Positions 3,673 through 27,913 of a stretch of 30,086 nt of DNA are shown here, in pieces (within the stretch, counting starts at the first letter, position 1; every line of letters begins with the position of its first letter). Position numbers and translations under genes: made by a program. The notes beneath the pieces were generated by a model. The model saw only the letters and a program-made list of their open reading frames with translations. It was not told where the DNA came from and did no database searches. Source of the stretch: a virus (Duplodnaviria > Caudoviricetes); IMG/VR virus record IMGVR_UViG_3300045902_000811, positions 1-30,086 of that record; one strand, given 5' to 3'.

Positions 3673-4977
3673 TTACCTCCTCTCTGCCTTCTTGCCCGTG
3701 AACTGCTCGAAGCGCTGGACGATGACGTCGCAGTAGAGCGGGTCCAGCTCCATCAGGAACGCCTTGCGGCCGGTCTGCTCGGCGGCGATCAGCGTCGAAC
3801 CGCTGCCGCCGAACAGATCGATCACGTTCTCGCCGGCCCGCGATGAATACTGCATCGCGCGCACGGCCAGCTCGACGGGCTTCTCAGTCAAATGGATCAT
3901 GTTTTGGGGATTGACCTTTTTGACATGCCACAGGTCAGTCGCGTTGTTCGGCCCGAAGAACTGATGGGCAGCGCCTTCTTTCCAGCCGTAGAACGCGAGC
4001 TCAAAGCAACCCATGAAGTCTTTTCTCGTCAGCACCGGATGCTGCTTGTCCCAAACGATGCCTTGGGAAAAGTAAAGCCCGTGCGCCTTCAGCACCGGCG
4101 GGTAGTTGCCGAGGTTCGCGTAGCCGCCCCAGATGTAGAACCCCCGGCCCGGCAGCAGCACGCGGGCGAGGTTGCCGAACCAGGCGTGCAGCATCTGGTC
4201 GAACGCTTCCTCGGAGACGAAATCGTTGGCCAGGGGCCGGTCCTTGGGCCGCAGCTTCTTGTGCGTCGGTGCCTTTGGCCCCTGACGCGCGACATCGAAG
4301 GACTGATGATGGTTCTGCGGCTGGGTGTTGGACTCGCCGAACGATGACAGGCCGGCCGCGATGGCATTGTTGCTCCTTGGCTCGACCTTCACGTTGTAAG
4401 GAGGATCGGTGTTGACCAGGTGAATCGGCGCGCCGCCCAGCAGTCGGTCCACATCCTCGGCCTTGCCGCTGTCGCCGCAAAGCAGACGATGTTCGCCGAG
4501 GAGCCAGAGGTCACCCGGCTTGGTGACCGCTTCATCGGGCGGTTCGGGCACCTCGTCGGGGTCGCACAGGCCGTCCTTGACGCCGGGGTCGAGCAGCCTG
4601 GCCAGCTCGTCCTGGTCGAAGCCGAGCAGACCCAGGTCGTAGCCAAACGCCTGGACCGCTTCCAGTTCCAGCGGCAACAACTCGAAGTCCCACGTCGAAA
4701 GCTCGTGCAGCTTGTTGTCCGCCAGCCGGAAGGCGGCGACCTGCTCCGGCGTCAGGTCATCGGCCCGGATGACTGGTACCTCGGTCAGACCCAGCTGGCG
4801 AGCCGCCTTCAGCCGCGTGTGGCCGGCGATGAGCACGCCCTCTCGGTCCACCACCACCGGCACCTTGAAGCCGAATTCCTGGATGCTAGCCGCCACGGCA
4901 GCGACAGCCTGGTCATTGCAGCGGGGATTCCGCTCGTACTCGCGCACCCGCTCGATGGGCCAGAACTCGATCTGCAT
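3673..4977 (-). CDS. ParB-like N-terminal domain fused to an N6/N4 DNA methyltransferase
   Basis: NPR, IAGHTRLKAA, RLADNK (ParB/Srx); DPPY, HLTEKP, DLFGGSGST (beta-class MTase); start set at ATG 4977 after the GAGG RBS. Confidence 0.9.
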   Translation of the reverse strand: MQIEFWPIERVREYERNPRCNDQAVAAVAASIQEFGFKVPVVVDREGVLIAGHTRLKAARQLGLTEVPVIRADDLTPEQVAAFRLADNKLHELSTWDFELLPLELEAVQAFGYDLGLLGFDQDELARLLDPGVKDGLCDPDEVPEPPDEAVTKPGDLWLLGEHRLLCGDSGKAEDVDRLLGGAPIHLVNTDPPYNVKVEPRSNNAIAAGLSSFGESNTQPQNHHQSFDVARQGPKAPTHKKLRPKDRPLANDFVSEEAFDQMLHAWFGNLARVLLPGRGFYIWGGYANLGNYPPVLKAHGLYFSQGIVWDKQHPVLTRKDFMGCFELAFYGWKEGAAHQFFGPNNATDLWHVKKVNPQNMIHLTEKPVELAVRAMQYSSRAGENVIDLFGGSGSTLIAAEQTGRKAFLMELDPLYCDVIVQRFEQFTGKKAERR

Positions 4978-4999
4978 GGGACACCTCTTTCCGTTCGGG

Positions 5000-5043
5000 A
5001 AAAACCGGGCCGGGCGGTGCCATAACGGCCTCCGCCCCGGCCC
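5000..5043 (-). terminator. GC-rich hairpin plus short U tract directly 3' of pentamer array B
   Basis: Minus strand GGGCCG-G-GGCGG...CCGCC-CGGCCC followed by GGTTTTT. Confidence 0.5.
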
Positions 5044-5047
5044 CTTG

Positions 5048-5112
5048 GCCATGCCGCGCCTTGCCTTGCCGCGCCGCGCCATGCCCGGTCTAGCCGCGCC
5101 TGGACACGCCGA
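5048..5112 (-). repeat. Pentamer array B: 13 NN-GGY units, candidate guide RNA
   Basis: Minus strand tcGGC gtGTC caGGC gcGGC taGAC cgGGC atGGC gcGGC gcGGC aaGGC aaGGC gcGGC atGGC; 11 of 13 triplets are GGC; intergenic. Confidence 0.88.
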
Positions 5113-5234
5113 GTTAACCAAGTGGTCGTTGCCAAAAGTTCGGACCCGGAAATAAAACTGTCCTCAAGTTGGCGGCTGTTCCCGCGGCGGTCGATTTTTT
5201 TGTTCCGTTCCGGTAGTACCTACGCGACCAGGGT

Positions 5235-5449: not shown

Positions 5450-7455
5450 ACCGCCGGGTCGTCGGCTACGTTCTTCCTCAACCGTTGCACCCAACGCACC
5501 GATACGCTGCACTGTTCCGCGACCTGGCGGGTCGTCAATTCCGGGTTCGAGCGAAGTAGCTCAAGAACAGCACGCTTGCTTGTCTGGGCATCAACGTCTT
5601 GCACCGCTTGCTCGTGTGGCGGCGCTTGCGTGGCATAGCCGAGTCGGCCACGTCCCATGTCCCACCGATACACACGCCCAATCGCTTCAGCCTTCCGCAG
5701 AAGAACTTTGACCTTGAAATCGTTGATGCCGCTTTCATTTGCAGTCACCAGGATCGCGTCGAGCAGCTTCGGCTCGTAGCTGACGAACGCCGTCACGAAC
5801 CGCTCGACAGTCCACTCCGGTTCGGTCTTCTCTTTGCGCGCTCGCTTCGGCTGCTCGCTCCGCAGCAGCGTCGGATCGAGGTCGTCGGCCGGCGTCCACA
5901 CGGGGAAGGCCCAGCGCAAGCACCTGGGCGTCACTGGCGGCCAGGAACGCACGGCCGCTTCCAGCACGACCACGTCGTCCTCCTCGTGCGGACGCAGGAC
6001 GAGGTGCGTGTCGGTCGCCCGACTCTGGCTGCCGGCGCCGGCGCCCACATCGGTGATCGCCTTGCCCGACTGATTGCCCTTGCTGGTGTGGTGGATCAGC
6101 ACGAAGCAGCAGCCGAGCAAGTCGGCGTAGCGATCAATGGCGTTGTAAACGTTGGCCATCGTGCCGTTGTCGTTCTCGTCCATCTCGCGAGGCATGAAGC
6201 GGTACATCGCGTCGAGGATGATCACCTGGAACCGCCCCGGCTCCAGCGACCGGAAGTATGGCCCCAGCGAGAAGATGTCCTGCCAGTGGCCCCGCAGGTT
6301 CTGCACGAAGACGCGCTGTCCAACTTCACTGAGGCCGATCTGCCGCGCGGCCGCGACCCTGGGGATTCTGTTGGCTGAAGTCTCGCCATGCAGCTCGTTG
6401 TCGATGATGAGCACGTCGCCAGCTTCGCACGCGAACGTGTCGAGCCAGGGTCGTCCCGTGGCGACGGCCAGGGCCAGGTCAGTGACCATCCAAGACTTCC
6501 CAGTCTTTGGCGATGCGATGACGTTCATCGTCTCGCCCCGACGCAGCAGGCCGTGGATCACCGGCGGCCGCAGTTCGGGATAGCGTGCCATCAGGTCAGC
6601 CAGGCTGACTGGAACGAGCGGCGACGCCTCGACCATGAGCTGGTCCCAGTGCCCCTCGGCCATCGCGGTCGCGATCTGGTCGGGTTCGTACCGGGCGACG
6701 CTTGTGGCGATACGCTCCACCTCGGCCGGCTCAAGCCTCGGCCGGCAGCGGTCGTCGTTGACCTGGCACAGCGCCGCCAGGATTTCCGACCGCGTCATGC
6801 CGACGCGGCGCATCGTGCCGGCGAGGCGCGCCAGGGCCACGTTGCGGTGATGTTCCGGGATCGAGTTCGCTTCACCCCCGCTGGCCGCGATGGTGCCCGT
6901 TCCGTTGACCCACGGGTTGGGCGTCGTCGTCAGTGCGTCGAGTTCCGCGATCAACCACGCCGGCGGCTCGGGGAGGCGTTCGGGCGGCTCGTCGAGTTCC
7001 AGGCCCGGCGCCCAGCGGTAGTCGCCGTGTGCAGTTCGGCTGGGCGGCACGACGATGTAGCCGCCGTCGGTGCGAACATCGACGCTCGCTGCCAGTTTGC
7101 CGGTCGAACACTTCCACGCTTTGCCCCCTCGCCGGCGAAAGAGGTAATGCCGCCCGCCGCGCGGCGTCAGGCTCACGGCGCCGGTCTGGGCCAGGGAAGC
7201 GCTGCGTTCCGGGTCGCCGGGCCAGAGGTTGCCGTCGCCGTCGATGTCGATGACCAGCAAGCCTTCGGTCGGGATGCCGATATTGGCGCTCGGATGTTGT
7301 GTCCACCAGCGCTCGATCTGCTCGGCATTGCTCGTGGCGTCATGGAAGCCGTGTTCGGTCAGCGGCGCTTTACCGGAAGGCGCGCAGGGGAAGACCCGGT
7401 AGCGCAGCTCGGCATAGCGGAGAGCAGCCGTCAGCAGTTCGCCAGGGGTCACCAC
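5356..7455 (-). CDS. Bifunctional primase/polymerase (Prim-Pol) + PriCT-like + AAA_25 helicase + C-terminal HTH
   Basis: VFPC..GKAP, NIGI, VIDID, TPRGGRHY, DVRTDGGYIVVPPS; Walker A ASPKTGKS, ILDA, IHHTSK; C-terminal LTTRQVAEQCSVSVRWV. Confidence 0.9.
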   Translation of the reverse strand: MVTPGELLTAALRYAELRYRVFPCAPSGKAPLTEHGFHDATSNAEQIERWWTQHPSANIGIPTEGLLVIDIDGDGNLWPGDPERSASLAQTGAVSLTPRGGRHYLFRRRGGKAWKCSTGKLAASVDVRTDGGYIVVPPSRTAHGDYRWAPGLELDEPPERLPEPPAWLIAELDALTTTPNPWVNGTGTIAASGGEANSIPEHHRNVALARLAGTMRRVGMTRSEILAALCQVNDDRCRPRLEPAEVERIATSVARYEPDQIATAMAEGHWDQLMVEASPLVPVSLADLMARYPELRPPVIHGLLRRGETMNVIASPKTGKSWMVTDLALAVATGRPWLDTFACEAGDVLIIDNELHGETSANRIPRVAAARQIGLSEVGQRVFVQNLRGHWQDIFSLGPYFRSLEPGRFQVIILDAMYRFMPREMDENDNGTMANVYNAIDRYADLLGCCFVLIHHTSKGNQSGKAITDVGAGAGSQSRATDTHLVLRPHEEDDVVVLEAAVRSWPPVTPRCLRWAFPVWTPADDLDPTLLRSEQPKRARKEKTEPEWTVERFVTAFVSYEPKLLDAILVTANESGINDFKVKVLLRKAEAIGRVYRWDMGRGRLGYATQAPPHEQAVQDVDAQTSKRAVLELLRSNPELTTRQVAEQCSVSVRWVQRLRKNVADDPAVRTGELNEFAANCSPPSSQGSSPRNSNEDED

Positions 7456-9194
7456 GGGATTTCCTCCTCCGCGGCGACCGCGTTGTAGCCGAACGGGAAG
7501 TCAATGGCGTCCGCAGGCACCTCTTGGGTGTCGAGCGGCGGCGGGATGGCGCCCAGCTCGTAGCCGATGATCCGGTCGAAGTCCTCTCCGGCGATGCTGC
7601 GGACGGTGATCTCGCGCGTCGTGGTCAGGCGTCCTGCCTGAGCCAGAGCAACCGCTTCTTCAGCCGTCTCCGGCACCGGCTCGTGCGAGCGCTGCTTCCA
7701 CCAGGCCACGGCCTTGGCGCGGGCGTAGCCCGTGTGCTCGAAGCAGACCCACTCCGACTTGTATTCATGCCAGCCGACCTTGTAATCGACTCGCATGGTC
7801 CTCGGGGCGTCGTCCGGTGCGTCACGCTTCTTGTGGACGCCGTAGTACACGTCCCGCACGGCGTACTTGGTGATCGTCACCTGCCCGGAGAGGATGCCGG
7901 CTTCGCTGGCCTTGGCGTCATGCTTGCCGCGCTCCGCTGGTGGGAACTCATAGCCGCAGTCCGGGCAGCGCGCATAGCCGGCGGAGATGACCGAGTGGCA
8001 CTCTGGACATTCCTTCGCCGGCGCCTGGCCGTTGCCTCCGGCGTCGCGCTCCTTGACCTTGATTCCGTCTACCGGGCCGTGCCGCAGCACGTTGCCGCCG
8101 AAATCGAGCACCAGGCAGTTCTGCTTGCCGGGGTGCAACCGGAAGCCCCTGCCGACCATCTGGTAGTACAGGCCCGGCGACAGCGTCGGTCGCAACAAGA
8201 CCACGCAATCAACATTCGGCGCGTCGAAGCCGGTGGTCAGCACGTTGACGTTGCACAGATACTTCAGCGGCTCGGCGGCGTTTGCGCCAAAGTCGATCTG
8301 AAGCTGGCGTGCCCACTCCTGCTGGCGAAATCTGGCAATCAGTCGGTCCCGTTCGCCATCAGCCGTATCGCCGCTGACGAAGCCGCACTCAATGCCATGC
8401 TGCTTCTTCAGCGCCCGCACGACGTGCTCGCCGTGCTTGATCCCCGACGCGAAGATCAAGACCGCCCGGCGGTCGCGCGTGTGCTCGACGATCTCGGCGC
8501 AGGCGGCCCGCACCAGCGCATCCTCGTCCATCAGGTCCTCGACCTCACCGGCGACGTACTCACCGCCGCGCACGTGCAGGCCGCTGGTGTCCGCCCGCGC
8601 CTTGCCGGCCTTGGTGACCAGCGGGCAGAGGTAGCCCTGGACGATCAGCTCGCGCACACCGACCTCGTAGCAGATCGCGTTGAGGAAGTGTTCCGGGCTG
8701 CAGATCAGGCCTGACTTCAGCCGGTACGGCGTGGCCGTCAGACCAATCACGCGCAGGTGCGGGTTGAGTGCCTTGGCCTCGGCCAGGAATTGGCGATACA
8801 TACCCTCGCCGTCCGGGGGAATGAGATGGGCCTCGTCTACCAACACCAGGTCGAACGCCCCCAACTCGCCGGCGCGCTGGTAGACCGACTGGATGCCGGC
8901 CAGGATGACGGCCCGGCCGGTGTCACGGCGCTTCAGGCCCGCCGAGTAGACGCCGAAGCGGACCTCGGAGCAGACCTGGCGCAGCTTGTCTGCCGCCTGC
9001 TCCAGCAGCTCCTTGACGTGGGCCAGGATCAGCACCCGGCCGTCCCAGCGCGTCACCGCGTCCTTGCAGATCGTCGCCATGATCGGCGTCTTGCCGCCCG
9101 CGGTGGGGATGACGACGACCGGGTTGTCGTCGTGCGAGCGCAGGTAGGCGTAGACGGCTTCGACGGCTTCACGTTGGTAAGGCCTGATCTGCAC
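7449..9194 (-). CDS. SF2 DEAD/DEAH helicase with Zn finger (RadD/YejH-like)
   Basis: RPYQ, PTAGGKT, DEAH, TATP, LTTGFD, QMVGRGFR, CPEC...CPDC. Confidence 0.92.
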   Translation of the reverse strand: MQIRPYQREAVEAVYAYLRSHDDNPVVVIPTAGGKTPIMATICKDAVTRWDGRVLILAHVKELLEQAADKLRQVCSEVRFGVYSAGLKRRDTGRAVILAGIQSVYQRAGELGAFDLVLVDEAHLIPPDGEGMYRQFLAEAKALNPHLRVIGLTATPYRLKSGLICSPEHFLNAICYEVGVRELIVQGYLCPLVTKAGKARADTSGLHVRGGEYVAGEVEDLMDEDALVRAACAEIVEHTRDRRAVLIFASGIKHGEHVVRALKKQHGIECGFVSGDTADGERDRLIARFRQQEWARQLQIDFGANAAEPLKYLCNVNVLTTGFDAPNVDCVVLLRPTLSPGLYYQMVGRGFRLHPGKQNCLVLDFGGNVLRHGPVDGIKVKERDAGGNGQAPAKECPECHSVISAGYARCPDCGYEFPPAERGKHDAKASEAGILSGQVTITKYAVRDVYYGVHKKRDAPDDAPRTMRVDYKVGWHEYKSEWVCFEHTGYARAKAVAWWKQRSHEPVPETAEEAVALAQAGRLTTTREITVRSIAGEDFDRIIGYELGAIPPPLDTQEVPADAIDFPFGYNAVAAEEEIPW

Positions 9195-9618
9195 CAGTGT
9201 CCCCCTCGATCTGCTCGATCACGCGACTGAGATACCGGCGTGCGCTCCTGAGGTCTTCCAGCCGGCCATCGCTGGTTCGCTCCTGAATGCGGACAATGAC
9301 TTTGCCGCCCTTGACCGGGTCGTGCTTGGAGATCTCCAGGCGGACTACCTGGCTGTCGTCGTGGAACACGCCAGCGTGCTGCAGCGCATCCGACAAGCAC
9401 TTGTGAAAATTGTCCGCATCGCGCTTGCGGCGATCGGGCGGGAACAGCTCCACGACCAGGTCCAGCGGCCCGCTCAACGGCTTGATCCCTTGCGTTGCCA
9501 GGAGTGCCACAACTGAGTCGCGGTAGGCGCGGCCGCGGCGGCTGATGAGCGTCACGTGGCCGAGATGCCGGTAGTAGTGGTTCAGGCTCGGCGGAAACGG
9601 CAGTTCCAAAGTCAGCAT
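9169..9618 (-). CDS. rusA: RusA family Holliday junction resolvase
   Basis: LPFPPSLNHYYR, PPDRRKRDADNFHK...DAL, DDSQV. Confidence 0.88.
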   Translation of the reverse strand: MLTLELPFPPSLNHYYRHLGHVTLISRRGRAYRDSVVALLATQGIKPLSGPLDLVVELFPPDRRKRDADNFHKCLSDALQHAGVFHDDSQVVRLEISKHDPVKGGKVIVRIQERTSDGRLEDLRSARRYLSRVIEQIEGDTGADQALPT

Positions 9619-9632
9619 GCTTGGTCCTGACG

Positions 9633-9742
9633 AAAAAGAAGCCTGACCTGTGCTCTGGTCGCATAGGCGCTACCAGACCATCGGCGGACCAAATCAGGTG
9701 CCTGCCGGGGGAGGCCCGTTCACCAGAAGTCACAGGCCAGGC
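9633..9742 (-). terminator. Long stem-loop with U tract between the RAMP gene and rusA (terminator/attenuator candidate)
   Basis: Minus strand GCCTGGCCTGTG...CACAGGTCAGGC 12-bp stem (one G-U) followed by TTCTTTTT. Confidence 0.5.
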
Positions 9743-9777
9743 GTGGGGTCAGCATCCTCTTCTCCGTTTGGCGACGC

Positions 9778-10350
9778 TCACTCTTCCTCGTTCCAGACCG
9801 TGACGACGAACTTGCCGAAGGGCCCCTTGCAGTCAGGCCGGAAATCGCCAAGGCCGACGCGCTTGCCGGCTGCGTCCACTAGTTCACGTACCAGCCGTGG
9901 GGCAATCAGGTCGGTGTCGATACGGAGCGTGAACGAAATACGCCAATCGTGGAAGCAGGGACGGTGACAGAGGATTCGCCCGCCGGTGCTGGGAATGCGC
10001 ACCGCCCGCGTGTCCACGGTCCAAGGCTCGCGGTAGTCGATGGGCAACTCGACGCCTTCGATCTCCACACAGGCCGGCACCAGTGAGCACTTCTGGGTGG
10101 TGACCTTGCTCTTGCCGTGCTTGAAGAACTTGCCGGCGTCGATCAGGCAGCGAAACAGGTTCGGCTGGGGAATCATCGGCTGGCCGTCGAGCCCCAGGTA
10201 GAGCTTGCTTCGCGCCTGCTCCAGCGGACTACCCTTGTCGCCGACCACGGCAAGCTTGTTACCGCTGGTCGCGGCGAGTTGGGCGGCGTCCGTAAAACGG
10301 TTGCAAAGCAGCGGCGTCGTGCCTTCGATGGTGACGTGGATCGTTTTCAT
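9778..10350 (-). CDS. Solo Cas7/Csm3-like RAMP-fold protein (190 aa)
   Basis: N-terminal strand V.IEGTTPLL, IPQPNLFRCL helix, RP.F.DW...F.L, C-terminal Gly-rich loop AGKRVGLGDFRPDCKGPFGKF; no other cas genes present. Confidence 0.78.
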   Translation of the reverse strand: MKTIHVTIEGTTPLLCNRFTDAAQLAATSGNKLAVVGDKGSPLEQARSKLYLGLDGQPMIPQPNLFRCLIDAGKFFKHGKSKVTTQKCSLVPACVEIEGVELPIDYREPWTVDTRAVRIPSTGGRILCHRPCFHDWRISFTLRIDTDLIAPRLVRELVDAAGKRVGLGDFRPDCKGPFGKFVVTVWNEEE

Positions 10351-10370
10351 GATGTTCCCAGGAATGAGAA

Positions 10371-10450
10371 ACCATGCCTTGGTATGCCGCGACTTGCGTT
10401 GCCGCGCGAAGCCCCGCCCGGCTACACCTCGCCTTGCTTGGCCAAGCCCA
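10371..10450 (-). repeat. Pentamer array A: 16 NN-GGY units directly upstream of the RAMP gene, candidate guide RNA
   Basis: Minus strand tgGGC ttGGC caAGC aaGGC gaGGT gtAGC cgGGC ggGGC ttCGC gcGGC aaCGC aaGTC gcGGC atACC aaGGC atGGT; 10 of 16 triplets are GGY; small 5' hairpin GACC-N6-GGTC at 10453-10466. Confidence 0.85.
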
Positions 10451-10479
10451 TCGACCGCGAAAGGTCCGAGTACCGGTGT

Positions 10480-10932
10480 TTACCGTTTCCACGGGGGCAG
10501 GTTCGTCGTCGCCTGCTGTGGTGGGCCGCCCAGCGATTCACGCTTGGAAAATCCTCTGATCTCGTTCTGCAGCTCCCCGGTGTCCTCGCGCTTCTTCAGC
10601 TTGACCGTGATCACCAGCGGCAGGTTGTGCAGCTCGCAGCTGTCCCTGGGCGTCAACACGCCGACCGCCCGGCAGATGGCCGACAGCTCGGCGCGGGCGA
10701 TCTTCACGGCCGTCTCGTTGGCGTTGTGCAGGCTGAGCCGCGCCCAGACGAAGCGGTTCCTGTACGGCCCCTCCAAGATCTGGAAGGTGAGCTGCAGGTA
10801 GCGGCCGTCGCCGCTCTTGGTCGGCTTCATCTCGCTGTCGGTGATCATCGCCAGGTACTTGCCGGCGGGGATCGGCTCCAGGTCGGTCGTCGGGTCCACT
10901 TCGTTGGCGTTGAAACCGTGCAGGTCAGCCAT
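10480..10932 (-). CDS. DUF669 family protein (putative phage ssDNA-binding protein)
   Basis: PIPAGKYLAMI, TKSGDGRYLQLTFQILEGPYRNR..W..L, NEIRGF, C-terminal PPW; follows an AAA_24 ATPase. Confidence 0.82.
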   Translation of the reverse strand: MADLHGFNANEVDPTTDLEPIPAGKYLAMITDSEMKPTKSGDGRYLQLTFQILEGPYRNRFVWARLSLHNANETAVKIARAELSAICRAVGVLTPRDSCELHNLPLVITVKLKKREDTGELQNEIRGFSKRESLGGPPQQATTNLPPWKR

Positions 10933-11698
10933 TGGTTGGTCCTCCGTTCGGGGTCACATGGGGTTGATGGAAGAAGGAAGCGTAAGCGTGCCAATCGAGT
11001 GGCAGCTCGTCGGGCAGGTTTAGGCGGTTCTTGGCGACGTGGGAGGGGCGCTCGCTGGTGTACAGGACGCGCTCGCCGGTGCCGATGCCCTTGCTCTTCT
11101 TGCGGCTAAAGCCCTCGTCGGTCTGCTTGGTGTAGACCTTGTAGGTGGCGAACAGCACCTCGTCGCACCACTCCTGGATGATCTGCGAGGCCAGCTTGTG
11201 CAGCCTGGGCACGTAGCGGTCGTAGCTGTCGGTCTCGGGGTTCTCGAAGCGCTCGATGCGCGAGTGAGCGATCAGGATGATGGTCATGCCGCGGTCGTTG
11301 CGCAGGGCGTCCAGGCCGGCGAGGAACTCGCGCCAGCTCGTCAGGGCAAAGGCGTAGCCCTTGCCGTAGCCGATGTCCTCGATGTTCTCGACGGAGCGCT
11401 GCCGGCAGACCTCGGCCCAGATGAGTCGCTCCAGCCAGTCGAGCGAATCGACGACCAGAGTACGGTAAGGGTGCTGGTCGGTGTAGAGGGCCTCCAGCGC
11501 CTTCAAAGCGTCCTGATACGAGAGCGTCAGTGGGAACTTGTCACACTCGATCTCGCCCAGGCCGTCCTCGGTCTGGACGAACACGGGTCGGTCGCTTGAG
11601 GCGCCGAAGGTCGATTTGCCGATGCCGTGGGTGCCGTAGAGTAGCAGGCGGCGTGGGGCGAATCGCTTGCCGCTCTGGACTTGTGCCAGGAGACTCAT
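10925..11698 (-). CDS. AAA_24 / Sak4-like phage ATPase
   Basis: LYGTHGIGKST, TLVVDSLDWLE, GYGKGY, IAHS, AKNR. Confidence 0.87.
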   Translation of the reverse strand: MSLLAQVQSGKRFAPRRLLLYGTHGIGKSTFGASSDRPVFVQTEDGLGEIECDKFPLTLSYQDALKALEALYTDQHPYRTLVVDSLDWLERLIWAEVCRQRSVENIEDIGYGKGYAFALTSWREFLAGLDALRNDRGMTIILIAHSRIERFENPETDSYDRYVPRLHKLASQIIQEWCDEVLFATYKVYTKQTDEGFSRKKSKGIGTGERVLYTSERPSHVAKNRLNLPDELPLDWHAYASFFHQPHVTPNGGPTNG

Positions 11699-12565: not shown

Positions 12566-12591
12566 GGCGTCCCTCGGCATAGGAAATGGTC

Positions 12592-12634
12592 CCTCTATTT
12601 CCTAAAAGCCGCTTTGGCGCGGCCACTTGACGGA
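12592..12634 (-). promoter_or_regulatory. 43-bp element, copy 1 (candidate phage-sigma promoter for the replication genes)
   Basis: Minus strand TCCGTCAAGTGGCCGCGCCAAAGCGGCTTTTAGGAAATAGAGG; 41/43 identical to 14000-14042. Confidence 0.68.
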
Positions 12635-13210
12635 TCACCGGCCCAAATAATCCCGCAGCCCTGCGTCCTCGAAATGCTGCCGCAACCGGCGAATGGCGTC
12701 ATGCAGGGTGGTGCGGGGAACGCCGAGTTGGCGGGCTACCTCGGTGATGGAGTGGTGCTTCAGCCGCTCGCACAGGTCGCGCAGGTCGGGAGGTAGCTTG
12801 GCCAGGACGGCGGCCACATCATCGACCAGTTCCACCTCATCCAGGCGACTGCGTGAGGCAGTGTGCAGCCGGGTCTGCACGTGGTCCTCCGGGACGACTC
12901 GGGCCCGCTCCACGTATTCACCGTCCTCATCGAGAACTTTGTCGTGAAGCGAGCTGAGACGGCGGTGATCCCGTTTTTCCGCCTCGCGGCGACGGATGAG
13001 CGTCACCGCATGTTCGGCGATGACTTTGCGGAAGAAGCCCTCCGGGGCCTCGATGGGTTGCTGTTGCCGACGGAGACATTCCAGGAGGTGCAGGGCCATG
13101 TCTTGCTCCAGGTCGTCCCGATCCGAGGCGGTGAAGCCGTGCCGGCCGATCAGTCGCTTGACCCGCTCTCGGATGAGTTTCAAGGCGCGGTCATCGAACA
13201 GTTCTTGCAT
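12635..13210 (-). CDS. Sigma-70/ECF-like RNA polymerase sigma factor
   Basis: Region 2-like DRDDLEQD; region 4 KLPPDLRDL...SITEVARQLGVPRTTL HTH; GGAGGAG RBS. Confidence 0.8.
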   Translation of the reverse strand: MQELFDDRALKLIRERVKRLIGRHGFTASDRDDLEQDMALHLLECLRRQQQPIEAPEGFFRKVIAEHAVTLIRRREAEKRDHRRLSSLHDKVLDEDGEYVERARVVPEDHVQTRLHTASRSRLDEVELVDDVAAVLAKLPPDLRDLCERLKHHSITEVARQLGVPRTTLHDAIRRLRQHFEDAGLRDYLGR

Positions 13211-13999: not shown

Positions 14000-14042
14000 T
14001 CCGTCAAGTCGCCGCGCCAGAGCGGCTTTTAGGAAATAGAGG
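14000..14042 (+). promoter_or_regulatory. 43-bp element, copy 2 (candidate late promoter)
   Basis: TCCGTCAAGTCGCCGCGCCAGAGCGGCTTTTAGGAAATAGAGG, 23 bp before the first virion gene. Confidence 0.68.
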
Positions 14043-14065
14043 AACATCGTTTTGAGGAGCGCTTC

Positions 14066-25746: not shown

Positions 25747-26426
25747 TGGCCGGCGACGCCTTCAAGAAGGTCCAGCCGGGCCAGCGGCTGGAGATCACCG
25801 CCGAGGCGTTCAACGCCTTCCTCGACGCCGCCCGCGCCGTGCGCGAGCACAAGGTATTCGGCACCGAGGCGGCGCAGTTCTTCCGGCAGAGCGGCATCGT
25901 CAAGGTCAAGAACGTGTCGGGCGCGGACCGGGGGCGGTTCGCCGTGCTGGGCCTGACCGAGCCGATCATCCTCCCGGCCGACAATGAGAGCGAGTTCAAG
26001 CGGCAGGTGACGTTCGAGGGGGTCGTTCCCGCCAAGAACGACCACAAGGGCAAGTTCGCCGTCCTCCTGGAGCCGGTCGCGGACGGCAAGATCGGCCTGG
26101 GGGTGGTCGCCGGCGTCGTGCCGGTGCGCCTGCAGGTCGATCCGGCAAAGCTCTACGACTGCGCCGAGATCATCGACGACAACACGCAGGCCTTGCGGAA
26201 CGTGCCGCACGGCTCGGCGCGGGTGCTGTGGGTCGAGGCAACCGGCTCGACCGAGCGCTGGGCCGTCGTGCGGCTGGATGACGGCGACCACCAGGCCCAC
26301 GTGCTCATCACCGGCAACGTGCCCGACGCCGACGGCTATTACCCCGGCGAGGTGCAGCGCTACGACGTGGACACGAAGACCTGGCAGACGCTGTTCGCGT
26401 GCAAGGTGCTGGACATCAACCAATGA
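25746..26426 (+). CDS. Putative tail protein
   Basis: ATG overlaps the upstream stop (MAGDAFKK...); strong codon bias. Confidence 0.6.
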   Translation: MAGDAFKKVQPGQRLEITAEAFNAFLDAARAVREHKVFGTEAAQFFRQSGIVKVKNVSGADRGRFAVLGLTEPIILPADNESEFKRQVTFEGVVPAKNDHKGKFAVLLEPVADGKIGLGVVAGVVPVRLQVDPAKLYDCAEIIDDNTQALRNVPHGSARVLWVEATGSTERWAVVRLDDGDHQAHVLITGNVPDADGYYPGEVQRYDVDTKTWQTLFACKVLDINQ

Positions 26427-27913
26427 TCCTGGAGCAGCGATACCTGGCGCGGTTCGTGGGGCCGAAAGGCGGCGTGCCGGTGTACGCGCTCGGCTGTCCG
26501 GGATCGGGTTCGGGGCCGGCGGCGTTCCACACGTCCGTGCCCCGCGTGCTGGCCCGGTTCCTGGGGCTCAAAGGCGGCATGCCGCTCTACGGCTACTCCA
26601 CCTGCGAGTTCCCGCACATTGGCCGCTACCTGATGCGCTTCGTCGGCATGACGGCGGACAACGTGCCGGTGTACGCGCTCGGCTGCTGCCTGAAATCGTC
26701 GAGCGGGTCGTCCGGCGTCAGCGGGTCATCGGGCGAAAGCTCGGGCTACAGGGGCTCCTCCGGGGAAAGCGGCTCGTCGGGCGAAAGCTCGGGGTTCAGT
26801 GGGTCTTCCGGCGCGAGTTCCGGCGTCAGTGGATCGTCGGGCGCGAGTTCCGGTCTGAGCGGTTCGTCGGGTAACGGCTCCGGGGGCAGCGGCTCCTCCG
26901 GCAGCGGCCCCGGATCGAGCGGTCTGTCAGGAGCAAGCTCCGGGGCGAGCGGTTCGGCGAGCGGCTCCGGCTCGGTCAGTGGCTCCGCAGGCTCGGGAAC
27001 CTCGGGCACGAGCGGAACGAGCGGCTTGGGCTCGGGCACCAGCGGCGCTACCAGTGGCCCGAGCGGCTCGGCGAGCGGCAGCGGGTCGGGATCGGCCGCC
27101 GGCAGCGCCTCGGGAAGCGGCTCGGTGCCGGGGTCCGGTTCCGCATCCAGCGGCGCCCCCGGCTCGGCGTCGGCATCCGGCAGCGGCATCGGGTCCGCGG
27201 CCAGCTCTGGCGTCGGGTCGTCGGGGCTTGGCTCCTCGGGCGCGGGGAGCGGTTCCGGCCCCACCAGCTCGGGCGCGACCAGTGGGCCTGCGTCCGGCGG
27301 TTCCGTGGGGTCGAGCGGCGGCTCTCTCCCCGGTTCGGTTCCGGGTAGCGCTTCCGCGCCAGGCGGTTCGGGACCGGGAGGGAGTACTGGCTCGGGATCG
27401 TCCGGCTCGGGCTCGGGGACCGGCTCCGACTCCGGCGGTTCCTCCGGCCTCGGGTCGGCGACCGGGCCGTCCGGCAGCGGCTCATGCCCCGAGTACGACT
27501 GGGAGATGGCAGCCCTCGGCGGGGCCTCGTGGTCTGGCGGCGGCCGGTCCGTCCGCATCAGCTTCCAGGACTCCGAGAATTGCGGCGGCACGAACGCCAA
27601 CACGCAGTCCGGCACCGCCTCGCGCCGTGTGTGCCTCAGCACGCCGCAGCGCCTGACCATCAACATGACCGGCCTCGTCGAGACGCAGAACGGCGGCTTC
27701 GAGCAGGCCGAGGCGCGCGTCAACGGCCAGGTGGTCGCCTCCGGCGGCTCCTACGAGGAAGGCGGCGGTTGCGCCATGCGCGAGGCCACGACCGGCGGCT
27801 CCATCGACCTGCCCGCCGGCGAGCACCTGATCGAGCTGTCCGCCAGCACGAACGACCCGCTGTACCACGTCGGCGCGTACTGGCAATTCGACTTCACCTG
27901 GGAGCCCTTATGA
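26423..27913 (+). CDS. Ser/Gly-rich putative tail fibre/appendage protein
   Basis: Three N-terminal L.RF.G....P.Y...C repeats, about 260 aa of S/G low complexity, C-terminal beta-rich Cys-containing domain; ATGA overlaps at both ends. Confidence 0.75.
   Translation: MILEQRYLARFVGPKGGVPVYALGCPGSGSGPAAFHTSVPRVLARFLGLKGGMPLYGYSTCEFPHIGRYLMRFVGMTADNVPVYALGCCLKSSSGSSGVSGSSGESSGYRGSSGESGSSGESSGFSGSSGASSGVSGSSGASSGLSGSSGNGSGGSGSSGSGPGSSGLSGASSGASGSASGSGSVSGSAGSGTSGTSGTSGLGSGTSGATSGPSGSASGSGSGSAAGSASGSGSVPGSGSASSGAPGSASASGSGIGSAASSGVGSSGLGSSGAGSGSGPTSSGATSGPASGGSVGSSGGSLPGSVPGSASAPGGSGPGGSTGSGSSGSGSGTGSDSGGSSGLGSATGPSGSGSCPEYDWEMAALGGASWSGGGRSVRISFQDSENCGGTNANTQSGTASRRVCLSTPQRLTINMTGLVETQNGGFEQAEARVNGQVVASGGSYEEGGGCAMREATTGGSIDLPAGEHLIELSASTNDPLYHVGAYWQFDFTWEPL
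26695..27485 (+). repeat. Ser/Gly low-complexity coding tract including 10-aa SSG(E/A)SSGxSG units
   Basis: Approximately 30-bp degenerate tandem units near 26726-26870, then less regular S/G/A/P/T repeats. Confidence 0.85.

Follow-up and report, generated by a model that had tools for sequence, protein, structure and literature searches.

Introduction

VIPR, reported in 2026 (10.64898/2026.04.26.720920), silences genes by means of RNA guides in a manner resembling CRISPR. Its protein, Vipr, is a RAMP protein with an RRM core, a thumb and a G-loop. VIPR is known from Escherichia phage SUSP1 and from a Pseudomonas fulva prophage (10.64898/2026.04.26.720920, 10.64898/2026.04.26.720927 and 10.64898/2026.10.15.759431). 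The guide, or vrRNA, typically lies next to vipr and is built of some 9-16 GGY/NN pentamers in alternation (10.64898/2026.04.26.720920); a conserved, structured 3' tail is a further hallmark. In SUSP1, residues R138 and D177 of Vipr touch the GG of the repeat, and R-loop formation proceeds from the 3' end of the guide (10.64898/2026.04.26.720927). Seven VIPR types are described, with six vap accessory genes given (10.64898/2026.04.26.720920); a vap gene is a usual component on which the typing is based, and vap1 is required by SUSP1 during natural infection (10.64898/2026.10.15.759431). Targets named in the main accounts are satellites, prophage regulators, REP decoys and the vipr genes or vrRNAs of rivals.

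The locus discussed here shares with these systems a RAMP protein, a GGY/NN array and a 1-nt skip at the wobble base, as well as guides that read on either strand, predicted targets in rival viruses, and stand-alone guides. A poorer match to self than to non-self is likewise common to both, having been reported there for vrRNA-targeting guides (10.64898/2026.10.15.759431). In contrast to the targets published so far, the predicted target here is the sibling allele of an adjacent core gene; also unlike published VIPR, the putative immune allele is linked, the edge of the cassette lies within the target, and a vap gene is missing.

Two further kinds of element are comparable in layout. The free-standing homing endonucleases segF, segG and mobE of T4, which are associated with intronless homing and marker exclusion (PMC2988022), are likewise intergenic elements aimed at the adjacent gene of relatives lacking the element. 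Interference competition by gp210 of phiPA3 (PMC11620839) is also directed at a conserved gene next door, in a related phage without the element, and in both cases the flanking allele is co-inherited. Specificity in both cases resides in a protein, whereas here it would reside in an RNA with a gapped code, in a cassette that has no nuclease.

Results

The window, by which we mean the whole stretch of DNA analysed, is a virus record of 30,086 bases. It carries portal and capsid genes together with a minus-strand replication/recombination module, which contains an exonuclease VIII-like DUF3799 gene, a Sak4-like AAA_24 annealase that partners DUF669 (10925..11698), the DUF669 ssDNA-binding protein (10480..10932), a 190-aa ORF, the RusA resolvase (9169..9618), a helicase, a primase-polymerase and a ParB-N6/N4 DNA methylase (3673..4977). 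A Phycisphaerae MAG contains a close relative, and the host is therefore likely a planctomycete. A scan of positions 9500-11000 for sigma-70 promoters and terminators returned none. Elsewhere in the window, a 46-nt inverted repeat (93%; 12589-12634 and 14000-14045) stands at the start of the replication block and of the structural block, which run divergently, and flanks an ECF-like sigma gene (12635-13210), and the repeats are likely phage sigma promoters. A 48-nt direct repeat (94%; 1556-1603 and 1817-1864) lies in an amidoligase/glutamine amidotransferase region, and a long Gly/Ser-repeat protein (26399-27913, plus strand) adjoins genes that, reading the sequence by eye, we call glycosyltransferase-like and FkbM-methylase-like.

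The 190-aa ORF (9778..10350, minus strand) encodes a RAMP protein with the G-loop GLGDFRP, and a search of solved structures matched it to SUSP1 Vipr (PDB 36pp, E 7e-07). Residues R130 and D169 are invariant among 58 homologues and align to SUSP1 R138 and D177, while residue 17 is N17 in the resident Vipr versus H17 in that of SUSP1. The predicted structure (pLDDT 79) resembles Csm/Cas7-type RAMPs with a TM of 0.61. This fold is held in common with Class 1 CRISPR-Cas systems (Csm3/Cas7), although pairing here would be non-contiguous, and neither CRISPR repeats nor other cas genes were found in the window by repeat scans and Pfam searches of the 19 ORFs. Pfam likewise returned no nuclease domain for Vipr, its model having the RAMP fold instead. 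No vap gene is present at the cassette, which adds only the array and vipr relative to empty sites; since six vap genes are given for seven VIPR types, its absence does not disqualify the locus from membership.

A period-5 scan identified only two strong signals in the window, both of them GGY/NN arrays. Array A (10369..10453, minus strand) comprises 17 pentamers, 10 with an exact GGY, and stops 18 bases short of the vipr start; its targeting units 2-12 span 10448-10394. Judged by its Vipr-family protein, GGY/NN array and 1-nt skip in wobble register, the cassette at 9748..10560 is a member of VIPR. The non-targeting 3' tail of array A (10351..10393, minus strand) carries a CCAAGG-type motif that recurs in many related cassettes. 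It also contains a weak hairpin, which spans the ribosome-binding region of vipr and folds no better than shuffled sequences (z -0.64, not significant). As a side observation, the hairpin at 10351-10373 (minus strand) spans the bases right before the vipr start, and loading of Vipr on its own leader might limit translation.

The first-pass annotation of this DNA had noted that units 2-11 of array A, read with a one-base skip, agree with the DUF669 codons at 10572-10543 in 16/20 bases. We reproduced this match exactly, including the identity of all ten second positions and the placement of the skipped base at the codon wobble position. Unit 12 mismatches the resident gene at both bases, so that units 2-12 score 16/22 in gapped alignment against DUF669 codons 121-131 (LQNEIRGFSKR; 10540..10572, minus strand). 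This site, ~100 bp from the array, is the top 1-skip local match of array A in the 30 kb window. Its significance there is borderline, as 28/400 shuffled guides do equally well at some position of the 30 kb, and the hand estimate offered originally (about 4e-7 per site) overstates the in-window evidence. Neither the full 17-unit comparison (332/400 shuffles) nor skips of 0, 2 and 3 gave a significant result for array A in the window. The gapped NN-x code proposed in the annotation is correct: it equals the published 1-nt skip rule (10.64898/2026.04.26.720920) and, being already in print, is not new. Of the six differences between resident and guide, two could pair as U:G or G:T, whereas four are true mismatches that include the 3'-most targeting unit at each of its two bases; the differences are located in the 3' units of the guide, the end at which the R-loop nucleates in SUSP1.

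Evidence that the array A match is not due to chance comes from relatives rather than from the window alone. A better target had been predicted in the DUF669 gene of cassette-less relatives, and database scans bore this prediction out at the level of sequence matching. We scanned IMG/VR and GTDB with a 19-base gapped pattern covering units 3-12 with one base left open. It matched 14 IMG/VR sites and 1 GTDB site, all 15 inside DUF669, versus 0 matches for a shuffled pattern. vipr was absent from the fetched loci of 15/15 matches, and rusA lay 120-144 bp downstream in 14. The DUF669 site was found in 90 of 102 fetched loci, duplicates included; the best 14 of these 90 all lack vipr, read LQNEVRGYAKK and score 20/22 over units 2-12, versus 16/22 for the resident. 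These siblings depart from guide A at two bases, one of which is U:G-compatible while the other is a true mismatch; at this second base the resident allele fits the guide better than they do. Exact 20-base versions of a perfect target returned 0 hits in viral contigs and 0 in metagenome contigs. vipr was also absent from 5/5 whole target-bearing records, the four virus records among them being 29-51% complete. Many distant vipr-less DUF669 alleles score at most 16/22 as well, and the resident may therefore be the allele of a divergent donor rather than a recoded one.

We consider it probable, if by no means certain, that this VIPR cassette silences cassette-less siblings through the neighboring DUF669 gene; its own tightly linked copy, different at bases that the guide reads, would be immune. 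As extrapolated from SUSP1, Vipr would polymerise on the vrRNA, start an R-loop at the 3' units and block transcription. A block at the 3' end of a sibling's DUF669, upstream of rusA, helicase and primase, would cripple the replication/recombination operon of a co-resident sibling, and would also shut off a gene pair of the kind that mends breaks by recombination (DUF669/AAA; PMC13687109). If these viruses recombine freely, a guide against a conserved gene of kin would survive only where the immune allele travels with it. This requirement would account for guides adjoining their targets and for crossovers of cassette-inheriting recombinants at or before the first immunising mismatch.

Empty-site alleles delimit the cassette to 9748..10560 (minus strand), comprising a divergent DUF669 3' end, array A, vipr and a short remnant resembling the start of rusA; the RusA gene itself lies outside, since empty sites carry it as well. 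Codons 1-124 of DUF669 are 93-96% identical to cassette-less siblings, identity breaks at 10560 inside the target, and it resumes beyond vipr. Compared with 9 empty siblings, differences at codon positions 1 and 2 number 3-9 of 248 in codons 1-124, 6-7 of 14 in codons 125-131 and 8-12 of 32-38 in codons 132-150. BLAST matches to loci L034 and L116 stop at 10558, and that to L116 restarts at 9747. Contig joints that skip the cassette were found in public runs (9742 to 10561 in X8, 9748 to 10501 in X9); contigs were matched at 85% likeness, so that the joints may stem from other organisms. A cassette contig is also present in X9. RNA runs contained small shares only, with one contig covering part of a related cassette, and such contigs cannot show expression.

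The array of L117 is the same as array A letter for letter, and the 3' tracts agree at 97%, while the DUF669 5' parts of L117 and the window are 94.9% identical, each of which is closer to some empty siblings (96.5% and 97.6%) than to the other. Grouping of the two 5' parts was weakly rejected (p-AU 0.04) in a tree that is poorly resolved (0 starred branches). The guide of L002, which is related to guide A, scores 13/20 on its own allele versus 18/20 on its five nearest relatives. As side observations, the L002 array (5896-5975) has one pentamer more than array A (10453-10369), and the two guides differ where the resident alleles differ, each carrying the base pair of the other genome (TC vs GC).

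These junctions bear on a reading that we regard as rather unlikely, namely that the cassette homes without a nuclease of its own. On an empty allele the R-loop would stall forks or be cleaved, either by RusA or by an enzyme of the host. The adjacent exonuclease VIII/Sak4/DUF669 module would then mend the break with the cassette-bearing genome as template, thereby copying the cassette and immune allele. An upstream junction that falls inside the target, a backbone belonging to the very lineage that the guide targets, and the sharing of an array with L117 by DUF669 5' parts that do not group are all consistent with homing. The layout is that of free-standing homing endonucleases that cut an adjacent gene (PMC2988022), and a DUF669/AAA pair is capable of recombinational break repair (PMC13687109). 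However, Vipr is devoid of a nuclease domain, and the characterised Vipr represses only (10.64898/2026.04.26.720920). The same junction is, moreover, expected from repeated passive recombination combined with selection against self-targeting, and no long co-conversion tract was observed: in 7 cassettes that have sequence separating the target from the cassette, its divergence does not consistently exceed the baseline. Under the silencing of kin that we favor, cassette and immune allele would still spread like a homing element.

Related cassettes were surveyed using 297 distinct arrays extracted from 350 sequences, in a local database fetched around DUF669, vipr and methylase in which DUF669 alleles are over-represented. 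With a skip of 1, 24 arrays score at least 20, a level that shuffles reach at 0.5% each; with skips of 0, 2 and 3 the respective counts were 0, 2 and 5, in agreement with the 1-nt rule. The own homologue of the target lay within 500 bp of the array in 17/19 cases, compared to 4.2 expected from allele-weighted coverage; the P of 4e-12 for this adjacency presumes an independence that related cassettes do not have. Five of the 24 strong guides (L005, L134, L139 and two in L158) were left out of this count, either because the contig ends before the neighbor or because no credible own homologue could be mapped. Among 29 distinct DUF669-vipr cassettes, 20 match DUF669, 2 AAA_24 and 2 other genes, while 5 were not significant. 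Independent guides cover many positions and both strands of DUF669 (residues 1-9, 44-54, 68-79, 84-98, 99-109 and 113-132), and arrays adjoining portal, protease, helicase, DUF3799 or methylase genes match those very genes.

The own allele had a lower guide score than its five nearest alleles on average in 12/12 cassettes, and a lower one than the median allele in 11/12. Divergence of the target exceeded that of matched empty-empty pairs in 10/10, each time modestly (0-15% of pairs were as high). As far as sequence can tell, this divergence fits either recoding by the resident or the settling of guides where the resident already differed.

The breadth of these matches also suits a reading that we find improbable, in which adjacency is a by-product of guide making: NN units would be copied from nearby DNA or inserted next to it, with escape of the resident allele following later. 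Guides against many positions and both strands of one neighboring gene, and arrays that match whichever gene they adjoin, are what local templating would produce. The cassette contains no writing enzyme, however, and a mechanism for writing a gapped code was not found in the literature covered; the better fit of guides to sibling alleles than to self in 12/12 also speaks against this reading. Local templating and the silencing of kin may nonetheless both hold. More doubtful still is autoregulation, whereby the partial self-match would let Vipr weakly tune its own replication operon. Within its own genome array A matches nowhere better than at the resident site, which is also close by, but self ranks beneath nearest relatives and, in all but one case, beneath the median allele, and the 3'-most targeting unit is mismatched twice in the resident. 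Chance resemblance, although compatible with the in-window shuffles, is refuted by database-wide matches that fall in DUF669 without exception, by the silence of the shuffled pattern and by recurrence across cassettes.

Several other arrays were observed in this survey. Seven long GGY/GTC-type arrays occupy the interval from DUF669 to rusA in L042/L043 (7200-8450). They lack a close vipr match, possibly represent a divergent VIPR type, and gave no significant target in the local database. The first half of a long array in L137 (at 2440) spells a sigma-factor-like peptide (24 points, 0/40 shuffles) and its second half is like the L007 array, suggesting a possible chimeric guide. L018 has, upstream of vipr (4322-5150), a tandem row of twelve short units that resemble vrRNA, each set off from the next by a conserved GGATTTTAG-type linker.

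Array B (5046..5115, minus strand) is a stand-alone vrRNA 4.7 kb from vipr and just upstream of the ParB-methylase gene, and its units at 5110-5061 read V-Q-A-Y-R-I-A-x-N-K. The resident version of its target in the ParB-methylase, VAAFRLADNK (4711..4740, minus strand), scores 15/20 in gapped alignment. A 19-base pattern B gave 12 matches in IMG/VR, 12/12 at VQAYRIADNK of ParB-methylase homologues, with 19/20 versus the 15/20 of the resident. These matches occur in distant relatives (41-55% aa identity), whereas closer homologues score 16-18/20, 18/20 being the best among 115 rows. Relative to L270/L271, the first 400 bp of the ParB-methylase gene are 66-75% identical and the 3' part 91-96%. 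Stand-alone vrRNAs were also observed directly upstream of ParB-methylase in several relatives (e.g. L276:4872 and L312:4882), with no vipr in those fetched loci; that of L276 scores 22/22 on GVIICGHTRFK alleles versus 15/22 on its own.

Discussion

Targeting of a neighboring allele by VIPR was not found in the literature covered, including the main texts of 10.64898/2026.04.26.720920 and 10.64898/2026.10.15.759431, although the data tables of these preprints may hold such targets. What seems new here, and well supported by the sequence comparisons, is a VIPR apparently aimed at core genes of close kin, in which self would be told from non-self through a linked allele and not through a PAM.

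Certain observations weigh against the silencing of kin. The best target of guide A reaches only 20/22 and the resident still matches at 16/22; related cassettes are not independent of one another, 5/29 have no significant match, and guide B fits best in distant relatives. The cassette also has no vap gene, although vap1 is required by SUSP1 during natural infection. We raise, as a tentative proposal, that one VIPR clade consists of nuclease-free, RNA-guided homing elements, in effect natural phage gene drives, whose guide, blind to the wobble base, would mark the empty allele of the adjoining gene, and for which the Sak4/DUF669/RusA module of the phage would copy the cassette together with its immune allele into siblings.

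Twenty cassettes directed at one gene provide natural sets of guides, sensitive alleles and immune alleles with which the mismatch tolerance of VIPR may be measured. They likewise make two questions testable, namely how gapped guides are acquired and whether a CRISPR relative spreads in a homing-like manner. If homing were true, then selfish spread among kin, beside defence, would be one of the functions driving a system proposed to precede CRISPR.
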